Shown here: one piece after another, positions 33,489 through 47,111 of the stretch
How the letters are laid out: each line of letters starts with the position of its first letter
Position numbering within the stretch: position 1 is the first letter of the stretch
Source of the DNA: a virus
DNA: 64,000 nt
IMG/VR virus record: IMGVR_UViG_3300045996_002876
Coordinates: 1-64,000 of that record
Strand: one strand, 5' to 3'
Notes under the pieces: generated by a model
Database searches by the model: none
What the model was told of the DNA's origin: nothing
Seen by the model: the letters and a program-made list of their open reading frames with translations, nothing else
Made by a program: the position numbers and the translations under genes

Positions 33489-33776
33489 TCAGGTCCTTTG
33501 GGGGTGGGCGTCCGTGCCGGGATTACTTTGGTCGCGGATGAGTTTCTCGTACGGGCACTGGCCGCCTTCCAGGGGGGCCTCGCACGTCCGGCAGGCCCCG
33601 GCGGCCTCGAGCTCGGCCCGCTTAAGCATGGCCCGGTAGAGGGCCTCCAGGGCCGCCCCGGCCGCCCGGTCGTACCGGGTGATGAGGGCCAGCCCGTCGG
33701 GGGTGTACGCCGCCTCCCGGCCCGGCCGGAGAAGGGCGTCGATGTCGTTGAGGACCGGACCGGCGGCGTACAGCAC
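33489..33776 (-). CDS. Hypothetical protein (Cys cluster)
   Basis: 95 aa, CRTC...CP. Confidence 0.5.
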   Translation of the reverse strand: MLYAAGPVLNDIDALLRPGREAAYTPDGLALITRYDRAAGAALEALYRAMLKRAELEAAGACRTCEAPLEGGQCPYEKLIRDQSNPGTDAHPQRT

Positions 33777-33801
33777 GGGCGTCTCCGTAAGGCCGGGGGC
33801 C

Positions 33802-34419
33802 TTAAATTTCTACCACGATCGGCGCGTTCACGGGTCGATACGCCTCGTCCACCAGGGAGGCGTTCACGAACAGGGTCTTCCCGATCCGGTACGTCCCGTA
33901 CCCGGAGTGGATGTGCCCGGCGACTACCAAGCGGGGCTGGACGGCCTCGATCCGTGTCAGCAGGCTCATAGACCCGGTGTGGACCCGCCCGTAGGGGCTG
34001 AAGTCCCCGTGCCCGTACGGCGGGCCGTGCAGGACCAGGATGTCCGTGTCGGCCGGGATGGCGTCCCACCGCTTCTTCAGGTCCGGCTCGTCGGCGTTGA
34101 AGGCCCAGTCGAAAAACCGGGGCTGCCACGGGGACCCGTAAATCTTCAGCCCGCCCCACTCGACCCCAGAGTCCTGGAGGTAGGCCCAGTTCATCCGGGG
34201 GACCATGTGCGGGGCCCGCTCGAAGATGAAGTCGTGGTTCCCGGCCACCCCGACGATTTTCATCCGTCCCGCGGCCCGGTCGACCCACGGGGCGAACGCG
34301 TCCCGGTACCAGAAGGCGTCGGCGTGGTCCCGACAGTAGTCCCCGGCCAGGACCAGCAGGTCGCAGTCCGGGACCTCCGGGAGGTGCCCGTGCAGGTCGC
34401 TGAGACAACAGACTTTCAC
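33802..34419 (-). CDS. Calcineurin-like metallophosphoesterase
   Basis: SDLHG, LAGD, GNHD, HGPP and GHIH motifs. Confidence 0.92.
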   Translation of the reverse strand: MKVCCLSDLHGHLPEVPDCDLLVLAGDYCRDHADAFWYRDAFAPWVDRAAGRMKIVGVAGNHDFIFERAPHMVPRMNWAYLQDSGVEWGGLKIYGSPWQPRFFDWAFNADEPDLKKRWDAIPADTDILVLHGPPYGHGDFSPYGRVHTGSMSLLTRIEAVQPRLVVAGHIHSGYGTYRIGKTLFVNASLVDEAYRPVNAPIVVEI

Positions 34420-34441
34420 GGGCGACTCCAGGGGCGGGCAG

Positions 34442-34584
34442 ACCGAGCGGGGAGAGTCGAACTCCCAGGTGACCGGGGGCCCTCGCCTTCCGGTCGGGAC
34501 GGTGTCATAGGAGGGTGATCACTCCTCCCCGGCCGTCCAGGGAGCACTCCATTCGTCCTGCGTTTACCGTTTCGCCACGCTCGG
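34442..34584 (-). ncRNA. tRNA-like RNA A (Leu-type body, 52-nt insert replacing the anticodon loop)
   Basis: Acceptor CCGAGCG/CGCTCGG, D arm TG-GCG-AAACGGTAAA-CGC, stem GGACG/CGTCC, long variable arm, T arm GGGAG-TTCGACT-CTCCC. Confidence 0.8.
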
Positions 34585-34586
34585 GG

Positions 34587-34805
34587 TCAGGGCTTACCTA
34601 GGAGGCGTTCGATCAGCTCCTCCCGGTTGGAGAACACCAGGTTCCGGTTGACCGTACGGAGGTCCTTCCGGACCCAGCCTTTGACTTCCACGACCGCCCG
34701 GTCGGCGTCGAAGGAGATCAGCCGCCCCTGAACGAGGTCGATCCCGGACAGGGTTACCCAGTCGAACCGAAGGTCCACGACCCAATAGGTTTCGCCGATC
34801 TTCAC
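34587..34805 (-). CDS. Small hypothetical protein
   Basis: 72 aa from GTG 34805, between two tRNA-like RNAs. Confidence 0.6.
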   Translation of the reverse strand: MKIGETYWVVDLRFDWVTLSGIDLVQGRLISFDADRAVVEVKGWVRKDLRTVNRNLVFSNREELIERLLGKP

Positions 34806-34829
34806 GGGCCTCCCCCTCTGGTTCTTGAT

Positions 34830-34957
34830 CAGTCCCGGCGGGATTCGAACCCGCGGCGCTTCCCCTTCGTCGGCCCCGCTACGGCCCCCCGGGAAAGCGT
34901 CTCCGTAGCGGTAAGGTTTGGACCCCGGCTTGTGGCCGTTCTCACCCACGGGGACTG
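34830..34957 (-). ncRNA. tRNA-like RNA B (pseudoknot-like insert)
   Basis: Bulged acceptor CAGTCCC(C)G/CGGGACTG, T arm GCGGG-TTCGAAT-CCCGC, 9-bp stem CCGCTACGG/CCGTAGCGG. Confidence 0.7.
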
Positions 34958-35075
34958 CTGTCTTCCGCCAGGGCCGTCCGGGGCGGCGAAAGCCGCCCCG
35001 GACTCCCCGGCACTCACCACACCACACGACCCCACGCCGTGTACGCTACCACCCGACCGGGCAGGCCTGCGTCCC

Positions 35076-35942
35076 TCACCCGGGGAAGTACCCGCCCGGC
35101 CCGTAACTCCGGACCGGGGCCGGCCGCGGGGGGACGTACCCGGCCCCCGACCCGGTGAACCCGGGGACGTACGCGGGGAAGGCCTGGGGCGGGTAGTACT
35201 TGATCGGCGGGACTTCCGGCGGGGGCGGGAACCGGGGGTCCCCGACCGGGGTCGTTTTCATCTGGCCCTTGGCCGGCGGCGGGGGCGGGAGGGGGGCCTT
35301 CCTGGCCTCCCCCTCGGGGTCCTTGAGGAACCGGGTGACCTCGTCCAGGCGGACGGCCAGGGTGGTCGTCCGGTCCCCGGTGATCCCGCCGTACAGGACG
35401 GCCGCCAGCTCGCCGGCGGCGTTCACCAGGGGGCCGCCCGAGTCCCCGTGCCAGGACCCGATCCGGGCCAGGACGGCCTTGAACCCGTCCCCCCCGGTCT
35501 CGTTCACGGACTCGACCCGGCCCGACCGGGTGACCAGCGGGCCGGCCTCGGTGAACCCGTACTGGGTGAGGACGGCCCCGGCCGCCGGGGCCGTGGCGGC
35601 CACGGGCAGGCTCGGGAGGTCGGCCGCCACCCGCAGGAGGGCCAGGTCGCTCCGCCCGTCGGCGGCCACCAGGGCGGCCGGGTAGACCTTCCCGCCGGCC
35701 GTCAGGACCTCGTACGTCGCGTCGGCCGCCGGGGCCACGTGCTTGTTGGTCAGGACCAGGCTCACGCCGGCCTTGCTGGACACGACCGCCCCGGTCCCCC
35801 ACCCGCACTCCTTGGAGCGGCGGTGGGTGTGCGGGTCCTCGACGAACCGGGACCGGCAGACCTGGACGCAGGCCCCCTCGGGGCCGGCCAGGAGGCCGGC
35901 GGGGAGGGCCAGGAGGAAGAGGCACACGAGGCGGCGAATCAT
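35076..35942 (-). CDS. Secreted trypsin-like serine protease
   Basis: Signal peptide; TNKHV, DLALL and GDSGGP triad motifs; Pro-rich tail. Confidence 0.9.
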   Translation of the reverse strand: MIRRLVCLFLLALPAGLLAGPEGACVQVCRSRFVEDPHTHRRSKECGWGTGAVVSSKAGVSLVLTNKHVAPAADATYEVLTAGGKVYPAALVAADGRSDLALLRVAADLPSLPVAATAPAAGAVLTQYGFTEAGPLVTRSGRVESVNETGGDGFKAVLARIGSWHGDSGGPLVNAAGELAAVLYGGITGDRTTTLAVRLDEVTRFLKDPEGEARKAPLPPPPPAKGQMKTTPVGDPRFPPPPEVPPIKYYPPQAFPAYVPGFTGSGAGYVPPRPAPVRSYGPGGYFPG

Positions 35943-35976
35943 TCGCGTTCCAGAAAGGGCGTGGGCGGGGGCGGGA

Positions 35977-36255
35977 CTAGGACTTCGGGCGGCGGAGCCA
36001 CTCCTCGTACCGGGCACAGGACGCGTCGAGGCGGGCCCGGGCGGCCTCCGCCTCGGCCTTCTTCCGCTCGTCGGCGTACGTCCGGTCCCCGTACGGGATC
36101 GGCTCGTCGCACAGGTTCCCGTCGTACACCAGGTCCTCCTTGGACCCGGTCAGGACGGCGCGGGCGGCGTTGAGGTACGGCTCGAGGACGACGAACAGGA
36201 CCGGGACGAGGACGAAGGCCAGGCAGGCCAGGCCGGACAGGACGTCGGGGTTCAT
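35977..36255 (-). CDS. Small membrane protein
   Basis: N-terminal TM, ATGA coupling. Confidence 0.6.
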   Translation of the reverse strand: MNPDVLSGLACLAFVLVPVLFVVLEPYLNAARAVLTGSKEDLVYDGNLCDEPIPYGDRTYADERKKAEAEAARARLDASCARYEEWLRRPKS

Positions 36256-37307
36256 CGGAGAGTCGCCTCCTCGGCGGCGGCCTCGGCGGCGGCCTCCTCC
36301 TCGGACACGAGGGTGATGGCCGGGCAGTTCTCCTCGTAGAACATGGTCGCGAACTCGACCGCCCCGGCCCACCCGCGGGCCACGAACCGGCCGAAGGCGG
36401 GGACGACGTACAGGGGGTAGCCGACGACCTTGACGTGGTCCCAGACCCGCCCCAGGACGTCCCAGGTGGTCCGCCGGGACCGCACGAAGTAGGCCGCCCC
36501 GCCGGCGAGGATGCCCCAGAAGAGCATGCGGGCCAGGAACCAGAAGGCCGCCCCGGTCCCCTCGGCCGAGAACAGCCAGGCGATCCCCTGGCAGATCCAG
36601 TAGAGGGCCCAGGCGAGGAACAGGACGGCCTCGTACAGGAGGTAGGCGGCCGCCACGGCCAGGACGGCGTACAGGGCGTACAGCCCCCACTTGACGAACG
36701 CCCGCGAGAAGTTCGACCAGAACACCAGGCGGGCCCGGAGGGCCGCCCGGCGGGCCTCGGCCCGTGCCTTGGCGGCCTCGTACCGGTCGACCAGGAGGGC
36801 GTGCAGGGCCCGGGCCTCCTCCGGGACCAGGAGGGCGTACGGGAACTCGTGCTTCAGGAAGGTCCAGACGGTGTCGAACTCCTTGTACGACCCGGACGAC
36901 CAGTTCCGGAGGAGTTCGGTCAGGCGGGCCGCGAAGTGGGCCCGCTCCTGGCGGAGGGTCGGGGCGACCTCAGCCGCCGGCTCCCGCTCCGGCCGGCGGG
37001 CCAGGAGCCCGCGGAGGAAGCTCCCGACGGCGGTCAGCCCGTCCCCGACACGGGAAGCCCCCCAGGCGGCCCGGACCCCCCGGAACACGGCCCGCCCGAC
37101 CTTGACGGCCAGCAGGAGCGGGAGGAGGAGGGCGATCAGGTTGGTCAGGTGGAACAGCGGGCAGTAGTGGGTGTACAGGTACTTGGGCAGGCCGGTGTCC
37201 TGGGGCCGGGCCGGGTCGGCGTCGGCCACCCCGAAGGCCCAGTGGAGGAGGCGGTACCGCCAGTGCCCGAAGGACAGGGTCCGGTCGGCCTTGATCGAGT
37301 CGAGCAC
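36252..37307 (-). CDS. Multi-TM membrane protein
   Basis: 351 aa, several hydrophobic helices, YTHYCP and YEENCPAI motifs. Confidence 0.75.
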   Translation of the reverse strand: MLDSIKADRTLSFGHWRYRLLHWAFGVADADPARPQDTGLPKYLYTHYCPLFHLTNLIALLLPLLLAVKVGRAVFRGVRAAWGASRVGDGLTAVGSFLRGLLARRPEREPAAEVAPTLRQERAHFAARLTELLRNWSSGSYKEFDTVWTFLKHEFPYALLVPEEARALHALLVDRYEAAKARAEARRAALRARLVFWSNFSRAFVKWGLYALYAVLAVAAAYLLYEAVLFLAWALYWICQGIAWLFSAEGTGAAFWFLARMLFWGILAGGAAYFVRSRRTTWDVLGRVWDHVKVVGYPLYVVPAFGRFVARGWAGAVEFATMFYEENCPAITLVSEEEAAAEAAAEEATLR

Positions 37308-37335
37308 GCGGGACTCCTGGGAACTCGTCTGGAAG

Positions 37336-37458
37336 AAGGCGGGGTGGGGGTCGAACCCACACGGCCCGGGGACGCCCCCGGGAGCTCTCCCCGACGCCGG
37401 CGGGATGGGTACCCTCGCCGCCGGAGCCGGGCCCTCTCGGGCCTTGAGCTACCCGCCC
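37336..37458 (-). ncRNA. tRNA-like RNA C (large D-loop insert, closed anticodon arm)
   Basis: Acceptor GGGCGGG/CCCGCCT, TA-GCTC...GAGC D stem, CCCGGGG-GCGT-CCCCGGG arm, T arm GTGGG-TTCGACC-CCCAC. Confidence 0.8.
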
Positions 37459-37664
37459 GTAAAGCCGGGAGTCGCACGGAGGCCTCCCGGGGGCCCTGCC
37501 AATCCGTCCGCCGGCTTCCGCTCCGACCGAACTACTCCCCGGCGGGGGACCCGTACTCGCTCGACGTTACACCGTCCCCCGAGCGTTCGTGGGGGACTGG
37601 AACACCCGTTACGGCCCGCTGGGATGACGCTCTCGGTCGCCGGGTGACCACCCTTACGGGCGGG
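37452..37664 (-). ncRNA. Candidate ~213-nt structured RNA domain abutting RNA C
   Basis: 11-bp closing inverted repeat; inner stems CGACCGA/TCGGTCG, GTCCCCC/GGGGGAC and AAGCCGG/CCGGCTT. Confidence 0.6.
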
Positions 37665-37721
37665 CCCTTTGGGAGGAGCTTGACCAGTCCTACCGGATGA
37701 GGGCTATCGGTGTTCTGGGGC

Positions 37722-37754
37722 GGCCGGGGGAGGTCCTTCCGACCTCCCCCGGCC
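37722..37754. repeat. 14-bp perfect palindrome after groES
   Basis: GGCCGGGGGAGGTC-CTTCC-GACCTCCCCCGGCC. Confidence 0.8.
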
Positions 37755-37764
37755 CGGCTGTTTT

Positions 37765-38097
37765 TCAGTCCTCGAGGACGCCGAGGACGTCGGCCTCGCG
37801 GAGGATCCGGACCTTCCTCCCGCCGACCTCCTCCTCGTGCCCGGCGTACATGCCGAACACGACCGTCTGGCCGACGGCCACGTCGAGGATGAGGCGGCGG
37901 TTCTGGCCGGGGTCGTAGGCCCCCGGGCCGACGGCCGTCACCACCCCCCGGCCGATCTTCATCCGGGCCGAGTCGGGCAGGAGGATCCCGCCGGGGGTCT
38001 GGGTCTCGGTCACGGGCTCGACCACCAGGTGGTCGGCGAGGGGGCGGATCTTCATGTCTCTTGGTTCTCCTGATTGTTCCTTGCCGACCGTCTTCAC
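37765..38097 (-). CDS. groES: Co-chaperonin GroES
   Basis: MKIRPLADHLVV, TPGGILLPDSA, AVGPG and ILREADVLGV; alternative start ATG 38055. Confidence 0.92.
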   Translation of the reverse strand: MKTVGKEQSGEPRDMKIRPLADHLVVEPVTETQTPGGILLPDSARMKIGRGVVTAVGPGAYDPGQNRRLILDVAVGQTVVFGMYAGHEEEVGGRKVRILREADVLGVLED

Positions 38098-38330
38098 TTT
38101 GCCGAGAGGGCCCGCCGGCCGTCCAGGTAGTCCTGCCCGTACCAGAGGACGAGCTTGACTTGCCGCTCGGTCATGGGGGCCCTGAGGGCGTACGCCGCCT
38201 GCTTATTCTGGGCGTCGATTTTCGCCCCTTCGGCCTCGTTGTCGGTCGCCTTCTGGCAGAATTCGTCCTCCGAGGCGGCCGACCGACATGCGATACAGAA
38301 CCCGCGGCGGTCGTGCATGTGGGTCGCCAT
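38094..38330 (-). CDS. Hypothetical protein
   Basis: 78 aa, CIAC...FC. Confidence 0.55.
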   Translation of the reverse strand: MATHMHDRRGFCIACRSAASEDEFCQKATDNEAEGAKIDAQNKQAAYALRAPMTERQVKLVLWYGQDYLDGRRALSAK

Positions 38331-46728: not shown

Positions 46729-46744
46729 CAAAGTGTACACTTTG
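46729..46744. promoter_or_regulatory. Perfect 16-bp operator-like palindrome
   Basis: CAAAGTGTACACTTTG between the divergent promoters. Confidence 0.7.
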
Positions 46745-46749
46745 GCATG

Positions 46750-46805
46750 TCTGGAATCTCAAGAATTATCCTTGACTCTCCAGAGCGGCCGCGTATCTTA
46801 CCCGT
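46750..46805 (+). promoter_or_regulatory. Rightward switch promoter with operator-like site
   Basis: TCTGGA-atc-TCAAGA then TTGACT-16-TATCTT-ACCCGT, same architecture as 38804-38839. Confidence 0.65.
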
Positions 46806-47111
46806 GTGAGCTACCTATCCCCCGGCGACCGGCCCCCTGGCGGGGGCCTGTGGCTCGCCGACGAGTTCCTCTGGGACTGCCTGCCGCGGCTGACCCCGCT
46901 GGCCGCCTACGTGTACCTGGCCGTCGGCCGGCACGCCTCGAAGTACCAGTACCCGACCGTCCGGGAGCTGGCCGTCGAGACGCTCCGGAGCGAGGCCCTG
47001 GTCCGCCGGGCGGTCGACCAGCTGGCCGCCCAGGGCCTCCTGAATTCCTCGGACCTCGCGGTCATCCTCCGCCCGACCACCCCCGGTGAGACCCCCGATT
47101 CCCATGAGTGA
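46806..47111 (+). CDS. Winged-HTH DNA-binding protein
   Basis: LTPLAAYVYL...YPTVRELA...S...VRRAVDQLAAQGLL. Confidence 0.75.
   Translation: MSYLSPGDRPPGGGLWLADEFLWDCLPRLTPLAAYVYLAVGRHASKYQYPTVRELAVETLRSEALVRRAVDQLAAQGLLNSSDLAVILRPTTPGETPDSHE

Follow-up and report, generated by a model that had tools for sequence, protein, structure and literature searches.

RNA B, a 127-nt element on the minus strand at positions 34830-34956, combines a tRNA-derived top half with an interior unlike that of a tRNA, and it is not a decoder. It lies in the window analyzed here (the first 64 kb of a 106,314-bp IMG/VR virus record, G000, which is about 73% complete and about 72% GC), and we number it along the minus strand from A1 (34956) to the discriminator base G127 (34830), no CCA being encoded. 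We tentatively propose, with somewhat less than even confidence, that RNase P and RNase Z cut RNA B, a module derived from a tRNA, and thereby free a small pseudoknotted RNA. The case for RNA B rests on its anatomy, on statistics and on genomic context.

Anatomy of the tRNA-like frame

The two tRNA-like features of the preliminary description, a canonical T arm and a bulged acceptor helix, are both present on the minus strand. The T arm (GCGGG-TTCGAAT-CCCGC, 34854-34838) is perfect, and the acceptor pairs a 5' strand, AGTCCC (34951-34956), with a 3' strand, GGGACT (34831-34836). This helix can be drawn with a bulge, but it is better drawn as 6 bp followed by a C·C mismatch at 7:66, with C34950 as the unpaired position 7 and C34837 opposite it. 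The 6 bp, the 7:66 mismatch and the 5-bp T stem thus give the canonical 12 layers of a tRNA acceptor/T stack, and the T loop (TTCGAAT) falls within the consensus TTCRANY. RNase P, RNase Z and the CCA-adding enzyme recognize this part of a tRNA. By chance, about one-third of random T arms find an acceptor partner with a single bulge, and the RNA B acceptor taken alone is therefore weak evidence; the folding energy of the whole molecule is unexceptional relative to shuffled sequences (z = -1.49).

Reading by hand, we find a D-like hairpin at 34932-34949 (minus strand), in which GTGG and CCAC enclose a 10-nt loop with GG at its end; it is non-canonical and abuts the acceptor without the 2-nt connector. 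A weak hairpin, GGGGU-CCAA-ACCUU (34913-34926, minus strand), is possibly the relic of an anticodon arm, as its UCCAAA might suggest.

Tests for a decoding tRNA or a tmRNA

ARAGORN found 0 tRNA or tmRNA genes in the whole genome. Rfam returned no match to RNA B at the gathering score, and relaxing the search to E ≤ 10 over 34000-36000 brought up no relevant family; on this search we rejected membership of any Rfam family, ribozymes and tRNA-like motifs included. A genome-wide search with RF00005 reported only element C (17.9 bits), one of two sister elements described below; when introns were allowed, ARAGORN called elements A and C, but for RNA B it offered nothing better than an absurd gene split by 968 nt of intron. 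Checking each 7-nt window of RNA B by hand, we saw no 5-bp anticodon stem closing a 7-nt loop with U33 and a purine at 37, the nearest fits being GGCC-GUAGCGG-GGCC and CCGGG-GUCCAAA (the latter without an adjacent 3' strand). The earlier view that RNA B is neither a tmRNA nor a decoding tRNA is thus borne out by ARAGORN, Rfam and RF00005, all of which reject it; as had also been noted, RNA B has neither the G3-U70 of alanine identity (the pair 3:70 is U-A) nor a tag reading frame. It contains no in-frame stop. An archaeal-type splicing route was considered and rejected: the proteome is not acidic, and EndA, RtcB and a CCA-adding enzyme are absent from the contig (73% complete).

Crossing helices in the interior

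Two helices occupy the core of the interior, both as first described. S1 joins CCGCTACGG (34903-34911; RNA B positions 46-54) to CCGTAGCGG (34876-34884; positions 73-81) by nine Watson-Crick pairs, and S2 joins CGCTTTCCC (34891-34899; positions 58-66), inside the S1 loop, to GGGGAAGCG (34857-34865; positions 92-100), 2 nt before the T arm, over 9 bp with one G-U, all on the minus strand. The two helices cross and have no bases in common, and in geometry alone they match an H-type pseudoknot (9 bp each, with loops of 3, 6 and 10 nt).

We evaluated how often such a crossing pair (helices of at least 9 bp, each with at most one G-U) is found in dinucleotide shuffles of the 77-nt interior. It occurred in 0 of 2000 shuffles, the rate rising to 0.25% when helices of at least 8 bp were accepted, and in 8 of 14,166 real 77-nt windows of the 106-kb phage genome, corresponding to about five loci. 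The suggestion that a non-tRNA interior holding the two would-be pseudoknot helices is something out of the ordinary therefore stands in this statistical sense. The energy estimates do not favor the pseudoknot over nested folds: a cloverleaf-like fold including S1 has -42.9 kcal/mol, to which the S2 duplex contributes -14.1 kcal/mol before any pseudoknot penalty, giving an estimate for the pseudoknot of about -50 to -55 kcal/mol, as against -56 to -57 kcal/mol for nested folds that keep the T arm; the unrestrained minimum (-61.1 kcal/mol) breaks the T arm. A pseudoknot is favored chiefly by how rarely such a crossing pair occurs, and the energetics leave the question undecided. The core formed by S1 and S2 may fold as an H-type pseudoknot. 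Such a domain was originally placed in the position of the anticodon arm, and here the description needs amending: the tRNA top half holds, but two hairpins (the D-like hairpin and the CCAA hairpin) come first, so that the candidate pseudoknot domain lies nearer to the position of the variable arm.

Clustering of T arms and the sister elements

The 106-kb genome contains five T-arm motifs (5-bp stem, TTCRANN loop), as compared with 0.93 expected from Markov-1 random genomes. Elements A, B and C account for three of the five; they occupy intergenic gaps of a single strand within a span of 3 kb. The next start codon follows their 3' ends at 22 nt (A), 24 nt (B, from the last base of RNA B to the GTG start of the 72-aa gene) and 28 nt (C), with a ribosome-binding site (RBS) in between. 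Their top halves are intact, and their middles alone differ.

Element A (34442-34584, minus strand) has the body of a type-II tRNA, with a 52-nt loop closed by the stem GGACG/CGTCC. It shows a 3-bp D stem and a 6-bp variable arm, and GGACG/CGTCC stands as its anticodon stem; its possible anticodon loops, both weak readings, are AUGGAGU, for Ser(GGA), or AAUGGAG. Element C (37336-37458, minus strand) becomes a 74-nt tRNA-Arg(CCG) when 50 nt beside a CUCCGGC loop are deleted. Its CCCGG stem is followed by this canonical loop, and without the next 50 nt it passes ARAGORN at 115%, the cut point being ambiguous (37/38 or 38/39). A tRNA-Arg(CCG) with a 50-nt insert is an alternative to the expanded D loop by which element C had earlier been explained. 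A fourth motif, CCGGG-TTCGACT-CCCGG, lies outside the window (105008-105114 of the record, minus strand), directly past the stop codon of a gene and before a GC hairpin; its acceptor partner is short and only possible.

Gene order and coding status

On the minus strand the order is as follows: the Cpn10 gene, element C, a 351-aa open reading frame (ORF), a trypsin-like protease gene, a 10-bp hairpin, RNA B, the RBS and 72-aa gene, element A, and a metallophosphoesterase gene (33802-34419), beyond which lie HNH endonuclease genes and an integrase gene. The 10-bp GC hairpin (34978-35001, minus strand) falls between the protease stop codon (35078-35076) and RNA B, and it is unlike an intrinsic terminator because the T run is absent. 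Downstream, the RBS GAGGGGGAGG and the orphan 72-aa gene (GTG start at 34805) occupy 34587-34822 on the minus strand, and element A starts 2 nt past the stop codon of that gene.

GC content by codon position in RNA B is 0.72/0.65/0.76, as compared with third-position values of 0.84-0.95 in the flanking genes; RNA B lacks the codon-position bias of its neighbors and is therefore non-coding. A 146-aa ORF that overlaps it was rejected as a real gene, having no coding signature, and the downstream gene is present in the protein database in its 72-aa form. Searches of 33700-38300 gave no minus-strand terminator consensus and no sigma-70-type promoter; these absences fit co-transcription, although weakly, because the host may use another type of promoter.

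Homologue searches returned little. The RNA B locus had no blastn match among GenBank phages, and its 3' 48 nt gave generic T-arm matches to tRNA-Glu and tRNA-Asp and nothing else. The 72-aa protein has no close relative in IMG/VR and is an orphan among 5.8 billion proteins, and an IMG/VR search with a 439-aa ORF (judged to be in the wrong frame) found no close relative. Matches to the protease in JGI metagenomes were only 29% identical, and the terminase matched, among reference genomes, one weak fragment in a Gemmatimonadales metagenome-assembled genome. With no RNA B homologue found, there is no covariation for any RNA B helix.

tRNA regions and tRNA-like elements in related phages

The metallophosphoesterase locates RNA B within a recognizable neighborhood. 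Its homologues flank ordinary tRNA arrays in other IMG/VR phages: in L002 (62% identity) the gene comes directly downstream of an array of 10 such tRNA genes, and in L009 (43%) of an array of 12. We therefore take the RNA B region to be the 'tRNA region' of this phage. The 62% identity to L002 is seen despite a GC content of 37% in that phage and 72% here, and the gene stands at the edge of the tRNA region in both. In L002, a 118-nt gap in the ordinary tRNA array (L002:5580-5697) contains a tRNA-like element whose acceptor, ACTTAATT/AATTAAGT, has 8 bp; besides its T arm, the element encloses a second T-arm-like hairpin, CGTGG-TTCAAAT-CCACG.

By terminase, two records come nearest: G002 (27 kb), at about 55% identity, and G001 (complete, 94.8 kb), at about 47%. 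ARAGORN without introns accepted no tRNA in either. In G002, nine mini tRNA top halves, roughly 48 nt in length, lie on the plus strand between consecutive same-strand ORFs (L025:14208-18944 and L026:6010-6064). All combine A1-U72 (or U-A) with an acceptor of 6 bp, a 7:66 position that is usually unpaired, N-UGG, a connector of 12 nt and a T arm; a CCA is encoded in none of the nine. Among their 12 pairs, seven change on both sides, 0 of 500 shuffles matched their covariation score, and an Rfam search with them found no known family. The start of RNA B, AGTCCCC-G-TGG-GTG, follows the same pattern. A covariance model (R1) built from the nine mini elements (alignment A1), which scores its training copies at 52-71 bits, did not report RNA B at E ≤ 10, and we therefore claim resemblance to the G002 elements and not membership.

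In G001, a tRNA-Ile(GAU) at L015:2087-2238 is interrupted by a 78-nt insert in the 5' strand of the T stem, between positions 51 and 52. RF00005 gives it 45 bits, and removal of the insert leaves a perfect 74-nt tRNA. The complete genome holds no other plain tRNA. It does contain further T-arm elements, one of which reads AGGGTTG-C-TGG-TG, 42 nt, the T arm and CGGCCCT. At L016:2742-2837 (G001 46742-46837) we observed a truncated tRNA-Lys(UUU), which continues from its 5' end through the anticodon loop and is followed by no tRNA-like sequence; this fragment adjoins the integrase homologue of G001 and is likely an attachment-site copy.

A proposed processing module

With a tRNA top half, no decoding parts and a location between same-strand genes, RNA B has the makeup of a punctuation element, and we suggest that it would work as follows. 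RNA B would sit within a polycistronic minus-strand transcript of the tRNA region of the phage. The host RNase P would recognize the acceptor/T stack and cut between C34957 and A34956; RNase Z or exonucleases would trim at or after G34830, and CCA might be added at this stage. Cutting would split the protease message from that of the 72-aa gene, the latter keeping a short leader, and would free an RNA of about 127 nt, to which a core of S1 and S2, perhaps folded as an H-type pseudoknot, could give compactness and stability. We count in favor of this model the enrichment and clustering of T arms, the non-coding character of the stretch, the 22-28 nt spacing to the next start codon, the association of the phosphoesterase with tRNA arrays, the covarying G002 mini elements and the rarity of the crossing helices; against it we count the lack of a homologue, the failure of R1 to match, the unexceptional z score and the competing nested folds.

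A broader conjecture, to which we assign a low probability, is that the lineage of this phage, G001 and G002 gave up ordinary tRNA genes and came to use the top half as a general scaffold, with minimal copies punctuating operons and expanded copies such as RNA B releasing, via RNase P and RNase Z, trans-acting small RNAs directed at a host or phage protein.

Alternative explanations

RNA B could instead be the decaying and functionless relic of a tRNA gene in a former cluster, its interior helices being accidents of a sequence that is 75% GC. Such a history would fit the rejection by RF00005 and ARAGORN, the irregular D region, the mismatch at 7:66, the missing homologues, the ordinary folding z score (-1.49) and the ease with which chance supplies an acceptor partner (about one-third of cases). 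Decay accounts poorly for a perfect T arm within a preserved 12-layer stack, for crossing 9-bp helices seen in 0 of 2000 shuffles and at about five genomic loci, for three neighboring elements that all have intact top halves and differ only in their middles, and for top halves that relatives have kept with covariation. We regard a relic as unlikely.

A second alternative keeps the anatomy and shifts the function: RNA B would be mainly a trans-acting small RNA, the tRNA frame serving as a scaffold for maturation or stability and the pseudoknot domain binding a protein of host or phage origin, such as a tRNA-binding or tRNA-cutting factor for which it would be a decoy. The structured and statistically unusual core within a tRNA frame is compatible with this, as are the different inserts carried by A, B and C and the precedent of T4 RNAs C and D, non-decoding products of a tRNA region. 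No conservation was found, however, and a simpler role in cis processing accounts for the placement before each RBS; we consider a mainly trans-acting role distinctly unlikely.

A third possibility is a real tRNA gene, perhaps for tRNA-Trp(CCA), with one or two short inserts removed after transcription. By hand reading, CCGGG-GUCCAAA past the D-like hairpin is matched by CCCGG 23 nt further on, and A1-U72 and G73 are in place; the region and its relatives also offer models in element C, a 74-nt tRNA-Arg(CCG) without its 50 nt, and in the tRNA-Ile(GAU) of G001 (45 bits with RF00005), perfect without its 78-nt insert, and short 'enigmatic' introns occur in tRNAs of Lak phages (Devoto et al. 2019, PMC6784885). 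To this we can oppose deletion scans, in which ARAGORN was rerun on RNA B after removal of each possible segment of 15-99 nt and, in a second round, of 296,167 segment pairs. The best single deletion gave a poor Ala(agc) model (ARAGORN threshold ≤105), the double deletions gave no consistent tRNA solution, and neither round yielded Trp, whereas the control, the G001 tRNA-Ile, was recovered at a threshold of 120 and element C at 115. These scans outweigh the hints of a hidden tRNA-Trp (A1-U72, G73 and UCCAAA). Moreover, the hand-drawn solution leaves 34 nt over as a 'variable region' and has G at position 32, the contig (73% complete) encodes no RtcB or splicing endonuclease, and A1-U72 is common to the anticodon-less G002 mini elements and is thus a trait of the lineage rather than a mark of Trp identity. 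An insert-bearing tRNA is, in our estimate, very unlikely.

That the T arm and 3' acceptor strand are a copied host tRNA 3' end serving as the phage attachment site, with a 5' partner acquired by chance (about one in three), is most improbable: a tyrosine integrase is encoded at 29310-28255 and the best-preserved part of RNA B is the part usual in attP sites, but the integrase lies 5.5 kb and several genes away, two full-length tRNA-like siblings stand nearby on the same strand, the interior structure is non-random, and the 24-nt segment of T arm and 3' acceptor (34854-34831) has no exact match in IMG/VR.

Comparison with known systems

The likeness to tmRNA or viral tRNA-like structures that was first drawn is less apt than a comparison with tRNA-like processing signals and with small RNAs of phage tRNA regions. 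RNA B shares with tmRNA a tRNA-like acceptor/T-arm domain joined to a pseudoknotted RNA (in RNA B a candidate pseudoknot), but it has no G3-U70, tag frame or resume codon, and it comprises only 127 nt. Plant-virus tRNA-like structures of the TYMV type were rejected as a model: these have their pseudoknot in the acceptor arm, at the 3' end of an RNA genome terminating in CCA, whereas RNA B belongs to an operon of a double-stranded DNA phage, has a plain helix as its acceptor and carries its crossing helices internally.

Other unusual tRNAs are related to RNA B to differing degrees. The non-canonical 8/4 and 9/3 tRNAs of bacteria and phages (PMC5389517) have a long D stem and an intact anticodon arm, and RNA B has neither. 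The enigmatic-intron tRNAs (PMC6784885) resemble it as phage tRNA-type genes with short structured inserts too small for group I introns, and element C and the tRNA-Ile of G001 fit that description; RNA B differs in that no deletion restores an anticodon arm. The G002 mini elements share with RNA B A1-U72, the 6-bp acceptor, the unpaired 7:66, N-UGG past the acceptor and a T arm with a TTCRANT loop; they too encode no CCA and occupy intergenic sites closely preceding genes of the same strand. They are, however, about 48 nt long with a 12-nt connector, whereas RNA B has about 95 nt between the acceptor 5' strand and the T arm.

Small RNAs C and D (rnaC and rnaD), of unknown role, come from the tRNA region of phage T4 (PMC3014915), and, like RNA B, they are encoded in a phage tRNA gene region and do not decode, the comparison covering location and the absence of decoding. 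In T4 ordinary tRNA genes lie alongside, whereas on the RNA B contig none is accepted by standard tools. In a catalogue listing over 10,000 candidate phage RNAs, tRNA-like structures come up only in cases of ARAGORN overlap (PMC10690425); if the proposed processing module is correct, RNA B would add to the phage small RNAs a class to which standard tRNA and Rfam annotation is wholly blind.

A precedent for the proposed processing module is offered by the t-elements of plant mitochondria, to which RNase P and RNase Z respond as signals, and by the tRNA-punctuation model of mitochondria (Forner et al. 2007, PMC1920247). Like RNA B, the t-elements are tRNA-like folds without a decoding role, located between or beside coding regions, and they are thought to direct the cuts by which the two enzymes make mRNA ends (PMC1920247). 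The t-elements are organellar and their transcript ends have been mapped, whereas RNA B belongs to a DNA phage and its ends are predicted; it also has a two-helix core of about 55 nt, and no such core is known in t-elements. If its tRNA frame is indeed a cutting signal, then bacterial phages would use the mitochondrial punctuation principle to divide long messages into single-gene pieces, and RNA B would show that a punctuation frame can carry an extra folded RNA domain.
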